From assembly GCA_022709525.1 (NCBI GenBank), contig JAKLIQ010000003.1, forward strand, positions 1,771 through 65,770: 64,000 bases of DNA, read 5' to 3'. Positions within the stretch are counted from its first letter, which is position 1. Every line of letters begins with the position of its first letter. The DNA comes from Candidatus Omnitrophota bacterium. GTDB taxonomy: Bacteria; Omnitrophota; Omnitrophia; Omnitrophales; Aquincolibacteriaceae. A model generated the notes under the pieces. It worked only from the letters and a program-made list of their open reading frames with translations, was not told the DNA's origin and ran no database searches. Shown one piece after another: positions 7,581 to 60,958 of this stretch. Position numbers and translations under genes: made by a program.

Positions 7581-9020
7581 ATGGACGCAGGTAAATTTTT
7601 AATAGCAGGCATCTTAGGGACGTTTTTATTGACCGCATCGTTCCACCCTCAGGCTTTTGCAGGCGACGAAGAGCTTTTGAGTCTTATCAAAGAATTGCAG
7701 AGAAAAATAGAGGCGCAGGAACAGCGCATCCAGAAATTAGAAGCGCAAGAACCCAGGATCCAGAACGACGAACTTATCAAGGATGTCGAGCTGCTCAAAC
7801 GGCAAAGAGAGGTGGATCAGGAGATCATGCTTAAAAAAGAAAAAGAAACTCCTATTGTCATCTCGAGCAAAGACGGGTTTTCTCTCAAATCGAAGGACGG
7901 CGACTTTCAGATCAAGCTCAAAGGTCAGATTCAGGCCGATGGCAGGTTTTATGCCAATGACGGCGTTCAGGCGACCCCTAACACTTTCTTGATCCGGAAG
8001 GCTCGCCCGATCCTTGAAGGCACCGCATTTCGGTACTTTGATTTTAAACTCATGCCGGATTTCGGCAGCAATCAAGTCCAGATTGTGGACGCCTATATCG
8101 ATTTTAAATATTGGAAACAAGCGGTGCTTCGGGCCGGAAAATTCAAACCTCCCATGGGCCTCGAGCGTCTTCAGCCGGACGCATGGAACCTTTTCCCCGA
8201 ACTTTCACTTGCTTCCAACCTGTTGCCTAACCGCGATCTCGGGGTAGGGATTCACGGGGAATTGTTCGGGGGCATTGTGAATTATGGCTTCGGTATTTTT
8301 AATGGCTCCGTGGATAATAGCAGCAATGATATTGATACGCAGGATGATAAAGATTTCATGGCGAGAATTTTCGTACATCCTTTTAAAAATTTTGCGCAGG
8401 ATTGGCTTAACGGACTGGGGCTTGGCTTTGCCGGAAGCATCGGAACGGCCCATTCAAACCTATTGCCTCAATATAAAACGTTCGGCCAACAGACCTTTTT
8501 TTCCTATAACAGCACGACCGAGGCGGACGGAGCGCGATATCGTTTTACCCCTCAATTTTATTATTATTTCGGTCCTTTCGGCATGCTGGGCGAGCTTGTG
8601 GAATCCATCCAGGAACTTAATAAGACAAACGCCCCGCGCGGCAGCTCCGCGTTCAGAAATAATGCGGGACAGCTCGCGGTTTCTTACGTGGTGACGGGGG
8701 AGAACGCTTCTTATACCGGCGTTACTCCGCGGAATAATTTTGATCCTAGCAAAGGAACCTGGGGGGCTTTTGAAGTCACTTCACGCTTTGACTGGTTGAG
8801 CGCCGAAAAGGATAACCTGGCCCAGTTTGCCAATCTTGCCGCATCAGCGCAACGCGCGGCCGGGTGGGCGCTCGGGTTCAACTGGTATCTTAATAAGTTT
8901 TTGAAATTTTCAACCGCTTTTGAGCAGACATTCTTTGACGATGCCGGGATCACGAAATTCGGGACCTCGCGCCATCCCAAGGAGAACGCTTTCATCGGGC
9001 GGCTTCAAATCGCATTTTAA
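7581..9020 (+). CDS. OprO/OprP-family anion-selective outer-membrane porin (Porin_O_P).
   Basis: Signal peptide. N-terminal heptad coiled-coil (LQRKIEAQEQRIQKLEAQ). A beta-rich remainder ending in an aromatic C-terminal residue (AF), typical of outer-membrane beta-barrels. The gene is located in a sulfur-assimilation context. Confidence 0.65.
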   Translation: MDAGKFLIAGILGTFLLTASFHPQAFAGDEELLSLIKELQRKIEAQEQRIQKLEAQEPRIQNDELIKDVELLKRQREVDQEIMLKKEKETPIVISSKDGFSLKSKDGDFQIKLKGQIQADGRFYANDGVQATPNTFLIRKARPILEGTAFRYFDFKLMPDFGSNQVQIVDAYIDFKYWKQAVLRAGKFKPPMGLERLQPDAWNLFPELSLASNLLPNRDLGVGIHGELFGGIVNYGFGIFNGSVDNSSNDIDTQDDKDFMARIFVHPFKNFAQDWLNGLGLGFAGSIGTAHSNLLPQYKTFGQQTFFSYNSTTEADGARYRFTPQFYYYFGPFGMLGELVESIQELNKTNAPRGSSAFRNNAGQLAVSYVVTGENASYTGVTPRNNFDPSKGTWGAFEVTSRFDWLSAEKDNLAQFANLAASAQRAAGWALGFNWYLNKFLKFSTAFEQTFFDDAGITKFGTSRHPKENAFIGRLQIAF

Positions 9021-9057
9021 GTTTTAAAAACCAGACAACCTAAAAAAGGAGTTTCCT

Positions 9058-9918
9058 ATGCCGGACATGACGTGGCAGCTTATCATCGGGATCATGGTGA
9101 TCGCTTTTTTCTGTGAATACATGGATTCAACGCTCGGAATGGGATATGGCACCACCATGACACCCGTTCTGATGCTTTTTGGCTTTACGCCGCTTGAAAT
9201 TGTCCCATCGGTTTTACTCTCAGAGCTTTTGACGGGCATGCTTTCAGGTGTAATGCATCACCGCGAAGGGAATGTGAATTTTCATTTCAAGATCTTAAAT
9301 TTTCAAAGAATAAAAGACAGCCTTAAACTTCCCGAGCCGGTCAACCCCGATTACCACACCTACGGGATACAGGTTTCCGCCCATCTTAAAGTGGTGATCC
9401 TGCTTTTAACGGCGACGATCCTCGGGTCAAGCAGCGCCGTGTTCACCGCGCGGATTCTTCCCAAACAATGGACCTCTCTTTATATCAGCTTGATGGTGAT
9501 TGCGATGGGGATTTTGATTCTGGCTTGTTTTAACAAACAATTTAAATATTCCTGGAAGAAAATCATAGGCCTTGGGCTTCTCGCGTCCTTCAACAAAGGG
9601 CTTACGGGCGGAGGGTACGGCCCTCTCGTGGTCAGTGGACAAATGCTTTCAGGGGTCCAGGGCAAAAACGCCATCGGCATTACGTCCTTGGCCGAAGGAG
9701 TCACATGCGCTCTGGGCGTGTTGATTTATTTTCTTACCGCAAAAAGCGGCATCGATTGGCGGCTCGCTCCGATCATTGTTGCGGGAGCGGTTTGCTCCGT
9801 GCCTTTTTCGGTCAAAAGCGTCAAAGTCATGCACCCTAAACTCTTAAAGGTTCTCATCGCGGTTCTGACGATTATTTTGGGGATCGTGACGCTTCTTAAA
9901 ACACTGCGTAGCTTTTAA
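9058..9918 (+). CDS. TauE/SafE (TSUP, DUF81) family anion permease, a likely sulfate/sulfite transporter.
   Basis: Eight predicted TM segments built from two repeated 4-TM units. Glycine-rich motifs (GMGYGTT, LTGGGYGPL). Directly upstream of cysD. Confidence 0.7.
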   Translation: MPDMTWQLIIGIMVIAFFCEYMDSTLGMGYGTTMTPVLMLFGFTPLEIVPSVLLSELLTGMLSGVMHHREGNVNFHFKILNFQRIKDSLKLPEPVNPDYHTYGIQVSAHLKVVILLLTATILGSSSAVFTARILPKQWTSLYISLMVIAMGILILACFNKQFKYSWKKIIGLGLLASFNKGLTGGGYGPLVVSGQMLSGVQGKNAIGITSLAEGVTCALGVLIYFLTAKSGIDWRLAPIIVAGAVCSVPFSVKSVKVMHPKLLKVLIAVLTIILGIVTLLKTLRSF

Positions 9919-15145: not shown

Positions 15146-15415
15146 ATGTGGTATGTTTATATTCTCAAGAGCCTGAAAACGGGGCGATATTATGTGGGGT
15201 ATGCAGAAGACCTCGAAAAAAGACTTGAGCAACACAATAGTGGAAAAACGAGATTGTTGAAATCCCATTTGCCACTAGCGCTCATTTATAATGAAAAATA
15301 TGCAAGCAAGTCCGAAGCTTATTTAAGAGAAAAGAAAATCAAGAGTTATAAAAGCGGAGAAGCGTTTAGGCGATTGATACGCAATCAAAATTTGGAGGCG
15401 TGCCAGAGCGGTTGA
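15146..15415 (+). CDS. GIY-YIG nuclease-family protein, small YhbQ/UPF0213 type, 89 aa.
   Basis: MWYVYILKS...GRYYVGYAEDLEKRLEQHNSGK is the GIY-YIG motif. The 15050..15415 ORF in the provided track starts inside the tRNA fragment. The first ATG with spacing from the A-rich leader is 15146. The stop codon lies inside the downstream tRNA gene. Confidence 0.8.
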   Translation: MWYVYILKSLKTGRYYVGYAEDLEKRLEQHNSGKTRLLKSHLPLALIYNEKYASKSEAYLREKKIKSYKSGEAFRRLIRNQNLEACQSG

Positions 15416-15481
15416 ATGGGGCAGTCTTGAAAACTGCTAAGGTCCTTGTGGCCTTCAGAGGTTCGAATCCTCTCGCCTCCG
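15394..15481 (+). tRNA. tRNA-Ser (anticodon UGA), intact, no encoded CCA.
   Basis: Acceptor GGAGGCG/CGCCTCC. 3-bp D-stem. Anticodon stem GCAGT/ACTGC with loop CTTGAAA. Long variable arm. T-arm AGAGG-TTCGAAT-CCTCT. Discriminator G. Confidence 0.8.
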
Positions 15482-15508
15482 ATTCATTTTGATTGCGGAG
15501 CGGTCTTG

Positions 15509-15558
15509 CCACCGCCTGCGAAGCGGCGGGGTCCCGCCTCTTTTCGGGCGGGAAAAAC
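15509..15558 (+). repeat. Copy 2 of the 50-nt double-hairpin element. It is preceded by a 14-nt remnant of a tRNA 5' half (GCGGAGCGGTCTTG).
   Basis: Identical to copy 1. The flanking 5' remnant matches the end of a tRNA-Ser 5' half. Confidence 0.8.
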
Positions 15559-15608
15559 TGCTAAGGTCCTTGTGGCCTTCAGAGGTTCGAATCCCTCCCT
15601 CTCCGCCA
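15554..15608 (+). pseudogene. 3' half of a tRNA-Ser(UGA)-type gene with encoded CCA. It runs from anticodon-loop AAAACTGC through the variable and T arms to acceptor CCTCTCC-G-CCA. Its T-stem is imperfect, so it is probably a decayed remnant.
   Basis: Matches the 3' portion of the intact tRNA. The acceptor pairs with the displaced 5' half at 15044. The T-stem 3' strand CCCTC does not pair well with AGAGG. Confidence 0.5.
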
Positions 15609-15610
15609 TG
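15588..15610 (+). repeat. 23-bp direct repeat, copy 1: CGAATCCCTCCCTCTCCGCCATG. This is the tRNA 3' end and candidate attL-like site.
   Basis: A perfect second copy lies at 15791..15813. Confidence 0.7.
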
Positions 15611-15635
15611 TTTTCATTATGATTCCAAGGAGAAC

Positions 15636-15779
15636 ATGACGACCTTATCGTCAAGATATAGAGAAATCTTGTACGATAAGGCCGTAAACTTTGGGGAGGA
15701 TTCGAAGGGAGCACTGATTGGAAATATGACAGATGTCATATTTACAGTGCGGGTGGCCGACCTGAAGCGAATGAAATGA
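15636..15779 (+). CDS. Small hypothetical ORF of 47 aa between the 23-bp direct repeats.
   Basis: ATG preceded by AAGGAG at 15626. The 15489..15779 ORF in the track starts inside repeat sequence. Weak support overall. Confidence 0.25.
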   Translation: MTTLSSRYREILYDKAVNFGEDSKGALIGNMTDVIFTVRVADLKRMK

Positions 15780-15790
15780 GCGGAAGGCGC

Positions 15791-15813
15791 CGAATCCCTC
15801 CCTCTCCGCCATG
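15791..15813 (+). repeat. 23-bp direct repeat, copy 2 (attR-like).
   Basis: Identical to 15588..15610. Confidence 0.7.
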
Positions 15814-20315: not shown

Positions 20316-21398
20316 ATGAAAACCCTCTACGGCTTGACCGACAAAGAGGTTTTGGAGCTTGTCGGGAGCCTAGGCCTTCCTAAATACCGCGCGGCGCAAC
20401 TTCTTGGGTGGGTCTATCAAAAAAACGCCCTGGCGTGGGAAGAGATTAAAAATCTACCCAAAGCCGCTCTTCAGGAGCTTTCTAAAGTAACGGCCCTTGT
20501 CTCGCTCGAGCCCTTCGAAGAAAAAAGATCCGCCGACGGGAGTTCTGTAAAATTTCTTTTCAAGACCCGCGACGGGCACCTTCTTGAAAGCGTTCTGATC
20601 TCAAACAAGGACCGGCAGACTGTTTGCGTTTCAACGCAGTTGGGTTGCAAGATCCGCTGCGCTTTTTGCGCGAGCGGGCAGGGGGGGTTTGTCCGTGACC
20701 TGACCGCGGGCGAGATCGTCGAACAGGTCGCCCGCGTCAGCCGCATGACGGGAAAAAAGATCACCAATGTCGTCTTTATGGGGATGGGGGAACCTCTCGA
20801 TAATTTTGACGCGACGTTCAAAGCAGTCCATATCTTGATCGAACCCTGGGGATTTGCTTTTGGCGCGCGCCGGGTGACCGTTTCAACTTCGGGGATCGTC
20901 CCTAAAATACTCGATTTCGTGAAATCGGTCGATGGCCGCGTCCGGCTCTCCGTATCGCTTCATTCAAGCATCGAGGAAGTGCGCACCAAGCTTGTCCCGA
21001 TCAATAAACGTTACCCGCTCAAGGAGCTTTTAAGCGCCTTGCGGAAGGTCAATCAGGGCTTGAAACGCGAGATCACTTTTGAATACACGCTTATTGCCGG
21101 TGTTAACGATTCGGACGAAGAAGCCGAGGGCGTCGCCATGCTGGCGAGGCCGCTTCATGCCAAGATCAACATTATTCCCTACAATCCGGTCGCCGAATTT
21201 GATCATAAGGCGCCTTCGCCCGAAGCCGCAGAACATTTCTGCGCCCATCTTAAAAAGCTCGGCTTACACGTGACGCTTCGGCAGACCGAGGGAAAAGAGA
21301 TCGATGCGGCGTGCGGACAATTGCGGCTTGATCGCGCACAAAGCGCAGAACGGTCACTTAACACTGCAAGGGACTCGGGACTCGTTCCTCGGGACTAG
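20316..21398 (+). CDS. rlmN: 23S rRNA (A2503-C2)/tRNA (A37-C2) methyltransferase, a radical-SAM enzyme.
   Basis: CVSTQLGCKIRCAFCASG radical-SAM cysteine motif and RlmN-type N-terminus. The last roughly 10 codons and the stop codon lie inside an inverted-repeat element. Confidence 0.9.
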   Translation: MKTLYGLTDKEVLELVGSLGLPKYRAAQLLGWVYQKNALAWEEIKNLPKAALQELSKVTALVSLEPFEEKRSADGSSVKFLFKTRDGHLLESVLISNKDRQTVCVSTQLGCKIRCAFCASGQGGFVRDLTAGEIVEQVARVSRMTGKKITNVVFMGMGEPLDNFDATFKAVHILIEPWGFAFGARRVTVSTSGIVPKILDFVKSVDGRVRLSVSLHSSIEEVRTKLVPINKRYPLKELLSALRKVNQGLKREITFEYTLIAGVNDSDEEAEGVAMLARPLHAKINIIPYNPVAEFDHKAPSPEAAEHFCAHLKKLGLHVTLRQTEGKEIDAACGQLRLDRAQSAERSLNTARDSGLVPRD

Positions 21399-21810
21399 CT
21401 TTCTTTTTAAAATTCTTACGCTCTGCGATCGAGGCCTCGATTTTTTCAAGCAATTTTCTGATCATACGCGATTCATGGTTAATTTTATTCGCGATCTTTT
21501 GAACGTTATTAGCATCTAACATTTGAAGAGCAAGAACAATCTCTAGTTGAGTATCCAACTCACCGCAGGAGCCCAGCGCCGTAAACAGAAAACGTTTATA
21601 ATCGCTCGAATATTTTCTATTGAATCCCTCTGCGATATTGCTCGGAATTGAAACGGCGGCGCGGCGCATTTGATCTGCTAAACCAAACTTTTCCTCTTGC
21701 GGGAACAATTTCGTGAGACGGTAAATATCTACAACCAGTTCCTTACCCGTTTTCCATATAACCAGATCCTTAAAGTTAGAAATCGCTTTCAGCTTATTTT
21801 CTTCCGTCAT
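21358..21810 (-). CDS. Four-helix-bundle protein (23S rRNA intervening-sequence protein family).
   Basis: AAVSIPSNIAEGFNR and four predicted helices, about 150 aa. Lies inside the inverted-repeat-bounded cassette. Confidence 0.7.
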   Translation of the reverse strand: MTEENKLKAISNFKDLVIWKTGKELVVDIYRLTKLFPQEEKFGLADQMRRAAVSIPSNIAEGFNRKYSSDYKRFLFTALGSCGELDTQLEIVLALQMLDANNVQKIANKINHESRMIRKLLEKIEASIAERKNFKKKASPEERVPSPLQC

Positions 21811-21877
21811 AACCTCTCCTTGTTCATGCTGTTGGTTTTTCGTTCAATTCGAGTCCCGAGGAGCGAGTCCCGAGTCC
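21369..21877. mobile_element. Roughly 510 bp cassette bounded by 27-29 bp terminal inverted repeats (GGGACTCGGGACTCGTTCCTCGGGACTAG ... GAGTCCCGAGGAGCGAGTCCCGAGTCC). It carries a four-helix-bundle protein gene. Putative MITE/IVS-like mobile cassette.
   Basis: The reverse complement of the right end matches the left end with 1 mismatch in 26. Solo copies of the same inverted-repeat pair with short interiors occur at 52201..52252 and 60408..60465. Confidence 0.45.
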
Positions 21878-23538
21878 AAGGCGCCATCCTTCTGTTGAAA
21901 CTCCCACAATTGATTGAACTCGGGTTTTTCGTTATAGACCCGCTCCAGCCGCTTTGAAAAAAATCCGTCTGTCATGCCGTCCAAGAGCATGGTGAGTTCA
22001 TCCATGCGGACAAGCGATTCAAGAAATTCCTGCTCGGAGGCCGGAGGCGAAAAAACAAGACTGATCTGAAGACGGCGGCGTTCGTAATAAATGCGCGTTG
22101 CCTCGGAAAGCAGGTCATTGCGGAGTTCCACCATGAGCTTTTCCCGCGAATCGATCGAAGTTTGGTCGGAGCTGTAGATCATGTCGCCTAGATGCCAGCT
22201 TACATCCGCGTTCCATCCTTTGCTTCTGTCTTCCGGGCCAAGAATATAACGGTCAGCATCCGTCGTGCTGCCGCGGTCCAGATCGATCGAAGTTCCGGTC
22301 GAATAATCCTTTCCGAAAGACAGCGTTGGAAGCATTCCCGCCACCCTTGAGGCGGCATGCCACCGTTTGATCTTTCCGTTCGAAACATTGGCGTATTTGA
22401 TCACATGTTTTTGGACCTCGCGGGCGGAGGGCTCCAAAGCAAAAAGCTCCTTGAGGAGGACAAGCGTTTTCTCATCCGGCTGATAAATCCTCAAAGGCGG
22501 CGGCGCTTCTGGTCCCAGAAAGGCGAGAGGCGATTCGACAAACCCTTCTTCCGTGATTGCTAGTAATTTTTCATGATTTAAAACAGCGATACCTCGCACG
22601 TCATTTTGGGCCAACCCGTCAAAAAGTCCGCTCCATTTCGACTTTAAAGCGTCGTATTTGTAAGCACCTCGAGGCGTGGCGGCATAAAGACAGTCGGCAT
22701 AGGCCAGTTGGAACACCTCGGGGTTTTGTAAGCCGCTTTTCGGAAGGGCCGTCCAGCGGTAACCGCGATCCAAGCTTTGAAAAACACCGTTTCGCGTCGC
22801 TAAAAAAAGAACCGGAGAAGGATTTTTTGAAAAGATGAGGTCGTGGATCTTAAAAAGAAAAAAATGATTTTCCTCGTTTATGTCATCCAACTCGTCTTCT
22901 GTGAAATCCCGTTCGCCGGCAGGCATGGAGAACACGCGTTCGGCGGGCCTTCCGGCCAGTGACAGGTAAAGAGCGTTTTCAGTTGCTACAAAAAGCCGGG
23001 CTTCCTCCGAGAAAAGAACCGCAACGGGAACCGAGGGACGAAACACAGAAGAAGGAGACCATGTTTTTCCGGCGTTGCAGGTTTCCCAAAGCCCTTTTTG
23101 CGTCCCGAGGAACCAGCGGTTTGCGTTCTGAGCATCGACCGAAAAAGAGAGAGGCCGCCGGTCGGAATGCTCATAGATCTTTTGCCATGAAAGGTCCTGC
23201 AAGTTCCCGGCGAATAAGCTGTCGTTTGCCAGGACGAAAACAGCGCCCGGTAAAGCGCTAAAAGAAAAGATTTTTCTGATCCCCGCGGCCGACTCCGTAT
23301 GCGACCAAAGCTCTTTCCAGCGGCTTTCTTCTCCGCCTTCAAAAATATTTCTTTCGGAAGCAAGGAGGAATTTGGCCGGATCAAGCGGATGAGCCGCGAG
23401 GCAGGTAAGCGGCCCTCCGGACAGAGAAGGCTGCAATGGTTTTTGCCACTCAGCTTTTACGGGGCCCTGGACGCTCAGCATAGAGCCCAGCAGGAAAATA
23501 AAAATTCTTTTTGCTGCTTTGCTATTTGATCTGTCCAT
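21844..23538 (-). CDS. Secreted hypothetical protein, possibly a beta-propeller/BNR-like fold.
   Basis: Start set at the ATG after a GGAGGA RBS (MDRSNSKAAKRIFIFLLGSM signal peptide). Repeated W/G-rich segments. The last 11 codons and the stop lie within the right inverted repeat of the neighbouring cassette. Confidence 0.5.
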   Translation of the reverse strand: MDRSNSKAAKRIFIFLLGSMLSVQGPVKAEWQKPLQPSLSGGPLTCLAAHPLDPAKFLLASERNIFEGGEESRWKELWSHTESAAGIRKIFSFSALPGAVFVLANDSLFAGNLQDLSWQKIYEHSDRRPLSFSVDAQNANRWFLGTQKGLWETCNAGKTWSPSSVFRPSVPVAVLFSEEARLFVATENALYLSLAGRPAERVFSMPAGERDFTEDELDDINEENHFFLFKIHDLIFSKNPSPVLFLATRNGVFQSLDRGYRWTALPKSGLQNPEVFQLAYADCLYAATPRGAYKYDALKSKWSGLFDGLAQNDVRGIAVLNHEKLLAITEEGFVESPLAFLGPEAPPPLRIYQPDEKTLVLLKELFALEPSAREVQKHVIKYANVSNGKIKRWHAASRVAGMLPTLSFGKDYSTGTSIDLDRGSTTDADRYILGPEDRSKGWNADVSWHLGDMIYSSDQTSIDSREKLMVELRNDLLSEATRIYYERRRLQISLVFSPPASEQEFLESLVRMDELTMLLDGMTDGFFSKRLERVYNEKPEFNQLWEFQQKDGALDSGLAPRDSN

Positions 23539-23831
23539 TGAACAGTCCTCCTTAATATTCATATTTATCATAAAATATATTCATTATTTAAAATAATGTC
23601 AATAATTAATTTAGTTTTCTGAAAACCTCCTATACAAAATCTTGATTTAACGAGGAAAGGAGATCCAAAGAAACCCATTTAAAAAGTCGAAAATTGACTA
23701 TTTAACCCTTTCATAATAAGTAAGCCAGCAGGCTTAGAGAGCCGATGCCCGCGATATTTTCGGACATACGTTCCATGAAAATCAGGCGCGTGTTGTGCCC
23801 TTGTGATTTTTTTGGTATAGTGCGGCTCATT

Positions 23832-52181: not shown

Positions 52182-52200
52182 AAACAGGGGCCTGTAGCCC

Positions 52201-52252
52201 GGGACTCGCCCCTCGTAAAAGCGGGGCATCCAAACGAGTCCCGAGTCCCGAG
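52201..52252. repeat. Solo miniature copy of the GGGACTCG...CGAGTCCCGAG inverted-repeat element: GGGACTCG, a 26-nt interior containing its own small hairpin, then CGAGTCCCGAGTCCCGAG.
   Basis: Same terminal motifs as the inverted repeats at 21369 and 21851. Fills the purH-folC intergenic spacer. Confidence 0.6.
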
Positions 52253-60349: not shown

Positions 60350-60407
60350 TTTTTCGCGCCTTGACCGCAACGCCGCGAACACATAGACTTTAACGCGTTT
60401 TCACGCG

Positions 60408-60465
60408 CGGGACTCGTAAAGAACAAGAAACTAATACGAGTCCCTAGTCCCGAGGCGCGAGTCCC
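60408..60465. repeat. Solo copy of the GGGACTCG...CGAGTCCC inverted-repeat element, with extra GAGTCCC units.
   Basis: GGGACTCG-20 nt-CGAGTCCCTAGTCCCGAGGCGCGAGTCCC. Lies immediately upstream of the second tRNA/GIY-YIG locus. Confidence 0.6.
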
Positions 60466-60474
60466 TGATTAAAA

Positions 60475-60510
60475 GGAGAGGTGGCAGAGTGGTCGGATGC
60501 GGCGGTCTCG
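60475..60510 (+). pseudogene. Displaced 5' half of a tRNA-Ser-type gene: GGAGAGGTGGCAGAGTGGTCGGATGCGGCGGTCTCG. It ends in the anticodon loop after position 35.
   Basis: About 85% identical to the first 36 nt of the intact tRNA at 60831. Its acceptor GGAGAGG does not match that tRNA's 3' strand. Confidence 0.6.
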
Positions 60511-60559
60511 CCACCGCCTGCAAAGCGGCGGGGTCCCGCCTCTTTTGGGCGGGAAAAAC
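60511..60559 (+). repeat. Copy 3 of the double-hairpin element. It is 49 nt, with 2 differences from copies 1 and 2.
   Basis: CCACCGCCTGCAAAGCGGCGGGGTCCCGCCTCTTTTGGGCGGGAAAAAC. Confidence 0.8.
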
Positions 60560-60578
60560 TCAAAAATTTATTTGAATT

Positions 60579-60825
60579 ATGTGGTATGTTTATATTTTAA
60601 AAAGCGAAAAAAACAGGTCGGTATTATACCGGTTATACGGAAGTCCTCGAAAAACGTTTGAAGCAACACAATAGCGGAAAGACAAAATCGCTCAAAGCGC
60701 ATCTGCCAGTTCAAGCTGTTTATATTGAAAAATTTATAAGCAGGCGTGAAGCATTTCAAAGAGAGCGACAAATTAAAAACTACAAAGGCGGAAAAGCATT
60801 TAGACGGTTGATTGAGAAAGGCTGA
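60579..60825 (+). pseudogene. Second GIY-YIG (YhbQ-type) nuclease gene. It is interrupted by a +1 frameshift in an A7 homopolymer at 60607..60613.
   Basis: MWYVYILKSEK- then, in the +1 frame, -TGRYYTGYTEVLEKRLKQHNSGKTKSLKAHLPVQAVYIEKFISRREAFQRERQIKNYKGGKAFRRLIEKG. Its first 18 nt are identical to the 15146 gene. The stop lies 5 nt before the tRNA. Confidence 0.65.
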
Positions 60826-60830
60826 TTCGC

Positions 60831-60917
60831 GGAGGTGTGGCAGAGCGGTCGAATGCGGCAGTCTCGAAAACTGTTAACCGCGTAAGCGGTTCGGAGGTTC
60901 GAATCCTCCCGCCTCCG
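60831..60917 (+). tRNA. tRNA-Ser (anticodon CGA), no encoded CCA.
   Basis: Acceptor GGAGGTG/CGCCTCC with one G-U pair. 3-bp D-stem. Anticodon loop CTCGAAA. Long variable arm CCGCGTAAGCGG. T-arm GGAGG-TTCGAAT-CCTCC. Confidence 0.75.
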
Positions 60918-60958
60918 TATTATTTTTTAAGAAAGCAATAATTAAAGAAGGAAAAATT

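Follow-up and report, generated by a model that had tools for sequence, protein, structure and literature searches.

A 64,000-nt stretch of a contig from Candidatus Omnitrophota bacterium (JAKLIQ010000003.1; hereafter the window) contains a gene of the 23S rRNA intervening sequence (IVS) protein family, which we refer to as IVP, enclosed by two inverted arrays of 7-nt units. On balance, and with no great confidence, we favor the reading that this is an IVS-type cassette, as in some 23S rRNA genes, placed at the 3′ terminus of a transcription unit that encodes protein, and that it works by the read-through, pairing and cleavage steps proposed below. Its closest known systems are the 23S rRNA IVSs that carry an open reading frame (ORF) and the heptamer repeats of Xanthomonas and Nostoc. 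Inverted 7-nt arrays are the normal packaging of the IVP family across several phyla.

A first-pass annotation, made from the window sequence alone, had assigned the gene to the four-helix-bundle proteins of the 23S rRNA IVS type, and family models confirm this: the matches to PF05635 (23S_rRNA_IVP; E 1.1e-36, 125.7 bits) and TIGR02436 ("four helix bundle protein"; E 2.3e-34, 117.9 bits) lie above the curated cut-offs of 33.8 and 24, respectively. The profile of PDB 2GSC (XCC0516) is matched with an E value of 5.6e-33. The motif of the family has been given as GxxRxxxSxxxNxxE (PMC3936711); IVP contains R-x3-S-x3-N-x2-E as R50-AAV-S54-IPS-N58-IA-E61-G, and R50, S54, N58, and E61 are invariant in an alignment of 25 sequences. 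On these comparisons, we judge IVP to be homologous to the pentameric XCC0516, which was crystallized with five chains according to the citation of Lin et al. 2006 in PMC4990558, and more distantly to Avd, a protein of diversity-generating retroelements (DGRs). The start codon is preceded at 5 nt by an AAGGAG ribosome-binding site. A profile search found no second IVP gene in the window, and none of the PADLOC defence models matched.

The near-perfect inverted repeat described in the first-pass annotation also stands. Positions 21371-21396 and 21852-21877 form two 26-nt arms with one mismatch (96% complementary) and 455 nt between them, and we estimate that chance would yield about 1e-8 such pairs per 1.3-kb region, calculated as (1300^2/2) x 79 / 4^26. 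The cassette has an outer span of ~508 nt and a terminal stem of 25-26 bp. Each arm consists of four 7-nt units, GGGACTC GGGACTC GNNCCTC GGGACT(C/A), so that the arrays, mainly GGGACTC units broken by one GNNCCTC unit, fit the pattern GGGANTN and form a convergent pair that abuts or overlaps gene 3′ ends.

As first described, the cassette lies between convergent genes, one RlmN-like (plus strand) and one encoding a 575-aa protein (minus strand), both of which end in or just past the arms (Table 1). The 5′ arm overlaps the final codons of the 575-aa gene, whose stop codon lies beyond that arm and 33 nt ahead of the IVP start. Both strands of the 3′ arm are translated, giving ASPEERVPSP in the IVP tail on the minus strand and RDSGLVPRD in the RlmN tail on the plus strand. 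Three proteins therefore receive C-terminal tails from the arms: RlmN (...RDSGLVPRD), the 575-aa protein (...LDSGLAPRDSN), and IVP (...ASPEERVPSPLQC). RlmN ends 20 residues after LRLDR in the window and 8 residues after it, 12 fewer, in a relative that has no IVP gene (L222). The claim that the gene sits inside the arms holds for most of its length, except that the last 13 codons are encoded by the 3′ (left) arm and cross it, leaving the stop codon (21358-21360) outside.

Table 1. Positions of the IVP cassette, its neighboring genes, and the ORF-less hairpins in the window
Feature	Position	Strand	Remarks
IVP gene (23S rRNA IVS protein family), 150 aa	21358..21810	-	PF05635, TIGR02436; motif RRAAVSIPSNIAEG
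5′ arm (sense of IVP gene)	21852..21877	-	reads GGACTC GGGACTC GCTCCTC GGGACT, then CG at 21850-21851
Spacer, 5′ arm to start codon	21813..21851	-	contains ribosome-binding site; not conserved in sister species
3′ arm	21370..21398	-	plus strand: GGGACTC GGGACTC GTTCCTC GGGACTA G
ORF-less hairpin	52198..52252	.	CCCGGGACTC GCCCCTC G ... CGAGTCCCGAGTCCCGAG; occupies 73-nt purH / folC-like spacer
ORF-less hairpin	60405..60465	.	minus: GGGACTC GCGCCTC GGGACTA GGGACTC G ... CGAGTCCCGCGC
RlmN-like radical SAM gene, convergent	20316..21398	+	last 9 codons and stop in 3′ arm
575-aa gene, co-oriented with IVP, upstream	21844..23571	-	faint BNR / PSII_BNR-like matches

The solo versions that the first-pass annotation reported elsewhere in the window were found as two hairpins composed of the same 7-nt units (52198-52252 and 60405-60465). 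The first has a folding energy between -29 and -33 kcal/mol (z between -3.4 and -3.8); the second, downstream of a CHASE2-GGDEF gene, has a long arm with the unit order of the cassette arm. Allowing up to 3 mismatches, the 15-mer searched for occurs 11 times in the window compared to 2.06 expected, and 0/100 shuffles reach 11. A lag-7 scan of the 64 kb detected GGGACTC-type heptad arrays at three sites only, the remaining lag-7 segments being two-unit matches of unrelated sequence, mostly within coding regions. The shared unit order GGGACTC-GNNCCTC-GGGACTA marks the ORF-less hairpins as copies of one family and not independent simple repeats.

The equivalence to an rRNA IVS that was initially proposed for the unit is borne out by the protein family, the span, and the stem, when compared with the IVSs of Coxiella and Azospirillum. 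The Coxiella IVS is 428-444 nt long, has a 28-bp terminal stem, and is excised by RNase III; at its 5′ end it carries 2-3 tandem GACAGAT heptamers, the number varying by strain, and the 5′ cut of RNase III falls at the start of the first of them (PMC4990558). On plasmid AZO_p2 of Azospirillum lipoferum 4B, we found an IVP ORF inside a 23S rRNA (Rfam LSU, 1122 bits), flanked by the heptad-periodic arms TCAGAGGACGGATGACAGAGGACGGAGGAC and GTCCTCTGTCTTCTGTCATCCGTCTTCTGA (GACGGAT/GACAGAG) with an outer span of 469 nt. From its flanks and the E. coli sequence, we take this IVS to occupy the helix-45 position.

The ORF-bearing 23S rRNA IVSs (Leptospira, Coxiella, Brucella, Xanthomonas, Azospirillum) resemble the window cassette in the protein family that they enclose, in having terminal inverted repeats around the element, and in an ORF that reads in the sense of its surroundings (the host transcript in rRNA, the upstream gene in the window). 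A 7-nt periodicity of the arms is common to Coxiella (GACAGAT), Azospirillum (GACGGAT/GACAGAG), and the window (GGGACTC). At ~508 nt, the cassette is similar in size to the rRNA IVSs compared (428-469 nt) and within the range of about 430-760 nt used as an IVS criterion. By these comparisons, the window unit is built like an ORF-bearing IVS, though outside rRNA: an rRNA IVS is by definition inserted in 23S helix 9, 25, or 45, whereas the cassette is flanked by a protein gene on one side and the 3′ end of a convergent rlmN on the other, and its arms are translated as the tails of three different ORFs. A further difference is that the Coxiella ORF is reported to be decaying and untranslated, whereas IVP is under strong purifying selection. 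By Rfam, the window itself contains no rRNA and only two tRNAs.

To place the cassette within its family, we surveyed 80 metagenome loci encoding relatives 42-89% identical to IVP, 70 of which were scored for their flanks. A crude screen, relying on 23S motifs, placed none of the 80 inside rRNA, and the single rRNA example came from the plasmid collection. A flanking inverted repeat (best ungapped, score at least 12) was present at 53/70 IVP genes, compared to 1/70 with shuffled flanks, 5/87 in displaced windows, and 14/70 in direct orientation. Self-similarity at lag 7 (score at least 8) was present in 63/70 flanks, compared to 0-2/70 at lags 4-6 and 8-11 and 13/82 control windows. The cassettes have a median outer span of 468 nt and a median arm length of 30 nt, and their arrays mostly contain 2-5 units, most often 4. 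The unit strand is the same from the outside inwards at both ends in 55/61 cassettes and opposite in none. Based on a crude ORF-based call, the upstream neighbor is co-oriented with IVP in 49/55 cases and the downstream neighbor in 31/43.

The units themselves vary widely, with CGTGAAG at 40 loci, CGTATCT at 14, GTTGCT at 5, GGCCAC-like units at 5, and GGGACT at 4, and several types are often mixed within one arm. Beyond the metagenome set, the cassette of Nostoc punctiforme has (TCAGGAG)n arms with 28/28 positions paired, and others have (AAAGGGA)n in Geminocystis, (TTAGCTG)n in Calothrix, and (AAGGTTY)n in Riemerella. In a Gemmatimonadaceae genome, arms of GGGACTC units flank an IVP with 44% identity over 77 aligned residues. 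No cargo besides IVP was seen in any ORF-bearing unit surveyed.

Further loci from these collections depart from or add to this layout. In a Lysobacterales metagenome-assembled genome (MAG; L054 900-2450), an IVP cassette with GTNAAAC-type heptad arms lies exactly between hslV and hslU, and an unrelated array of at least 12 GGGACTC units lies ~800 nt from it on the same contig. On Gemmatirosa kalamazoonensis plasmid 1 (L233, 1006889-1008642), the IVP arms are made from an 8-nt unit (CTCCTGCC), with an inverted-repeat score of 28 and a low lag-7 score. Plasmids gamma and alpha of Nostoc PCC 7120 (L227, L228) carry identical IVP genes (WP_010994075.1) with a heptad array (CTTCTGC/CCTCTGC) downstream only; the upstream side abuts a transposase gene, suggesting that insertion sequence activity may have removed one arm.

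We then considered the history of the locus. An identical IVP in the same context and with identical arms was found in 10/10 places shown (11 contigs read, from several metagenomes), and the arms of each species are identical across its contigs, without slippage polymorphism within populations. Sister species keep the order of 575-aa gene, IVP, and convergent RlmN, with IVP 81%, 78%, and 69% identical; the 575-aa protein is 57% identical in the 81% and 78% species, the two in which this neighbor was identified. Across these species, the IVP core shows a proportion of synonymous differences (pS) of 0.57-0.89, near saturation, and of nonsynonymous differences (pN) of 0.04-0.17, with a dN/dS of 0.04-0.08 where computable; purifying selection on IVP is strong. 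The four-unit arms have hardly changed, while the spacer before the IVP start codon is scrambled. Taken together, saturated synonymous sites, low pN, near-constant arms, and synteny among sister species show that protein and arm sequence are both selected and that the insertion is old. The proposal that IVP is the cargo of a mobile unit does not survive these data, as IVP is the constant content of the unit (63/70 homologs have 7-nt periodic flanks) and evolves under this constraint.

Other relatives show turnover at the same place. L222, whose 575-aa ortholog is 61% identical, has the same neighbors and no IVP gene, and its 54-nt heptad-containing spacer corresponds by homology to the region of the 5′ arm in the cassette of L223. 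In L223 itself (575-aa ortholog 53%), IVP shares just 33% identity with that of the window, the heptads are of the CCACAAG type, and the cassette is followed by a relic of a 3′ end of the window type, CGAGTCCCTTAAAATATTAA. L225 (575-aa ortholog 44%) has neither IVP nor relic; an HflX-like GTPase gene, identified by Pfam domains, is found there. Comparison at this locus indicates that cassettes have been gained, replaced, and reduced to ORF-less hairpins over evolutionary time. Mobility, as suggested in the first-pass annotation, is therefore supported on an evolutionary timescale by L222 and L223, and recent mobility at this site is not, given the 10/10 identical contigs and the same site in sister species.

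For the working of the cassette, we propose the following sequence of events. Presumably lacking a promoter of its own, the cassette would be transcribed by read-through from the 575-aa gene. In the RNA, the arms are predicted to pair into a ~25-bp stem that closes off the whole IVP message, and RNase III, by analogy with rRNA IVSs of Coxiella and other species for which such cleavage is on record (PMC4990558), would cut this stem and release a stem-capped IVP mRNA. More speculatively, IVP may then act on heptad arrays, both its own arms and the ORF-less copies. The predicted 25-bp stem is present in the minimum-energy fold and also in the centroid fold of a 524-nt RNA. We infer read-through expression from the predominance of co-oriented upstream genes (49/55) and the lack of a promoter-like site between 21200 and 22000 in a scan for sigma-70-type consensus.

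Several observations weigh against this proposal. The promoter scan, which also found no terminator-like site between 21200 and 22000, is weak, since it covers the sigma-70-type consensus only. As the 5′ arm in this clade is translated by the 575-aa gene and the 3′ arm by the IVP ORF, ribosomes would melt the stem, and because the 575-aa stop codon lies beyond the 5′ arm, an RNase III cut there would leave the upstream message without a stop. Among arm mismatches, 67 are of the G:U type and 58 of the A:C type (p = 0.47), giving no RNA-strand signature. Across sister species, variation in the arms is confined to the NN dinucleotide of the third unit, without compensation between arms, and the sequence of the arms is conserved more than pairing requires, which points to protein recognition or a role at the DNA level. 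In Coxiella, moreover, the IVS protein is seemingly not made in vivo, its ORF decaying and untranslated (PMC4990558).

The second of the closest known systems is the heptamer repeats described by Rehm et al. 2015 (PMC4692102), in which each Xanthomonas genome contains ~185 (GGGANTN)n arrays, 70-75 of them as convergent inverted pairs just after genes. The GGGACTC units of the window fit (GGGANTN)n, and its arrays likewise lie just after an upstream gene in convergent inverted pairs. The Xanthomonas GGGAATC/GGGANTN and Nostoc GGGGA(C/T)T repeats were interpreted as quadruplex-forming (PMC4692102). The window arms, in contrast, are short of G tracts, and most IVP-associated heptads are not G-rich. 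In the PMC4692102 text, a term search gave no match for IVS or four-helix-bundle proteins, and row 15 of its supplementary table lists an array over the start of XCC0516, the crystallized IVP homolog. In the literature covered, from which subscription journals were outside, we found no link of the IVP family generally to inverted heptad arrays beyond the Coxiella heptamers, and a prior description is possible.

An exact 15-mer scan of genome contigs returned >119 loci, of which we used only tandem arrays and inverted pairs, since single 15-mer matches are uninformative with ~1100 expected by chance in 596 Gb (our own estimate). Pairs of inverted GGGACTC arrays separated by 70-320 nt were found in Xanthomonas, Lysobacter, Rhodanobacter, and Gemmatimonadota, among others, and several of these pairs share subterminal sequences; an IVP gene lies near just 3/119 of the 15-mer loci. 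In Gammaproteobacteria and Acidobacteriota MAGs (L104, L116, L072, L044), pure GGGACTC tandem arrays of 11-12 or more units stand at contig ends, and long GGGACTC arrays may break assemblies.

These parallels raise a broader possibility, which we put forward tentatively and regard as doubtful: PF05635 proteins and inverted heptad arrays may together make up one widespread class of elements, with ORF-bearing autonomous forms, ORF-less derivatives, and a pentamer that recognizes the units. If so, the autonomous forms would include the 23S rRNA IVSs as well as the many genes named "four helix bundle protein" in operons, plasmids, and cas loci. The non-autonomous forms would comprise the Xanthomonas heptamer repeats, the two window hairpins, and perhaps the short tandemly repeated repetitive (STRR) heptamers of cyanobacteria, a possibly comparable repeat class. 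One unit might be bound per subunit, and the protein might serve in processing or spread, possibly as an Avd-like cofactor to an enzyme on nucleic acids that works in trans.

An alternative that we think unlikely is a DNA transposon of the MITE (miniature inverted-repeat transposable element) type, in which the arms would be terminal inverted repeats (TIRs) for a transposase encoded elsewhere, IVP a passenger, and the ORF-less hairpins the usual non-autonomous form. The fixed, TIR-like polarity of the arms (55/61 cassettes, none opposite), the ORF-less copies with their common unit order GGGACTC-GNNCCTC-GGGACTA, and the presence of the cassette in some related species and its absence or replacement in others would all be expected of such an element. 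So would the inverted GGGACTC arrays 70-320 nt apart in many genomes, some with common subterminal sequences, and the 70-75 inverted GGGAATC pairs per Xanthomonas genome (PMC4692102). MITEs, repetitive extragenic palindromic sequences and bacterial interspersed mosaic elements (REP/BIME), and Correia elements are similarly short, dispersed, and intergenic, with inverted ends and patchy presence among relatives, and in these families, as here, ORF-less copies outnumber ORF-bearing ones.

Against this stands the lack of a consistent target-site duplication, with CTT at both ends in the window and nothing comparable in sister loci L011 and L015, and of any transposase in the unit or within 10 kb of the cassette. 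The ends are 7-nt tandem arrays and not a unique TIR, and their unit sequences diverge widely from taxon to taxon, in contrast to the TIRs that serve a single transposase family. The sole ORF that they enclose encodes a 120-150-aa helical-bundle protein without a known catalytic motif, with no other cargo, and the cassette is fixed in 10/10 contigs and stable across species. Of the "MITE-like family" suggested in the first-pass annotation, we retain the terminal inverted repeats and the dispersed, ORF-less copies.

Less probable again is a domesticated post-transcriptional regulator, in which an IVP pentamer would bind 7-nt RNA units, the arms being operators and the targets its own message and transcripts with the ORF-less hairpins, such as purH-folC. 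TRAP, which binds triplet repeats, offers a model. The strong selection on IVP (dN/dS 0.04-0.08) would fit such a role, as would an arm sequence that is itself conserved, beyond pairing, next to a scrambled spacer and scrambled synonymous sites, and arrays of 2-5 units, commonly 4, in a family whose member XCC0516 crystallized with five chains. Proteins from cassettes of the same heptad type are also more similar to each other (mean identity 0.672 vs 0.605; 0/500 label permutations reach the difference), but shared descent of whole cassettes explains this equally well, and we do not use it as evidence of recognition. Only two possible extra targets lie in the 64 kb, and regulation leaves unexplained why the arms are always inverted and why the same units occur in rRNA.

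That IVP is the Avd accessory protein of a DGR is highly improbable. The two share a four-helix-bundle fold and distant homology, PDB 2GSC and 4DWL being reported as homologous (PMC10053308), and Avd is a small, basic, nucleic-acid-binding cofactor. IVP shows weak similarity to bAvd (PF22296, E 0.00098, 20 bits) and to DivGenRetAVD, the Avd model of NCBIfam (24.3 bits), both scores falling far short of the respective cut-offs (40 and 80 bits). Within 10 kb on either side, no gene for a reverse transcriptase was called, template/variable repeat pairs not having been searched for, and viral contigs yielded no IVP relatives with the IVP alignment and peptide patterns used.

Finally, the location between convergent genes and the description of GGGANTN arrays as quadruplex-forming in Xanthomonas and Nostoc (PMC4692102) might suggest ordinary terminator hairpins, or chance G-rich quadruplex-forming repeats unrelated to IVP, but this is hardly credible, since the arms are 455 nt apart and neither alone forms a hairpin, no terminator-like site was found in 21200-22000, the GGG tracts (three in the left arm, two in the right) fall short of the four that an intramolecular G-quadruplex requires, most IVP-flanking heptads are not G-rich (CGTGAAG, CGTATCT, TTAGCTG, AAGGTTC), and the association with IVP genes is far above controls. 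Both forms of this reading are refuted at this locus by the inverted-repeat and lag-7 controls together with the terminator scan.

We also note some features near these loci. Next to the hairpin at 60405-60465, which is immediately upstream, 60475-60512 carries an incomplete copy of a tRNA-Ser 5′ half, followed by a frameshifted GIY-YIG ORF (60579-60674 and 60658-60825; PF01541, E 9.8e-05) and an intact tRNA-Ser(cga) at 60830-60918. The region 60475-60918 resembles a GIY-YIG element that has integrated at a tRNA gene or been duplicated along with it. In L002, a contig from the same population, an 89-aa GIY-YIG gene is called at 9019-9288, between SIMPL and deaminase genes and next to a tRNA-Ser(tga). 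No gene is called at the corresponding site (window ~15393-15800) in L001 and L003, and the window ORF 15489-15779 has no Pfam match. In the sister species contig L015, positions 1-2963, upstream of the syntenic block, belong to a gene called with a 7652-residue product that combines methyltransferase, PP2C, transglycosylase, and transpeptidase domains.

IVP genes have been called "associated" with CRISPR-Cas loci; in Pleurocapsa, for instance, one lies between cmr3 and cmr2 (PMC3936711, PMC10910872). As the cassettes insert between co-oriented genes, this association may reflect opportunistic insertion and not a functional link, and caution is called for before IVP genes within cas or other operons are taken as functional partners of those operons. 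Questions about the function of IVS proteins and the origin of rRNA IVSs go back to 1993, and an excess of heptameric repeats was noted in 2007 and 2015. The window presents the layout of an rRNA IVS in a non-rRNA setting, with a protein that is plainly under selection, and the general inverted-heptad layout ties together three separate literatures.

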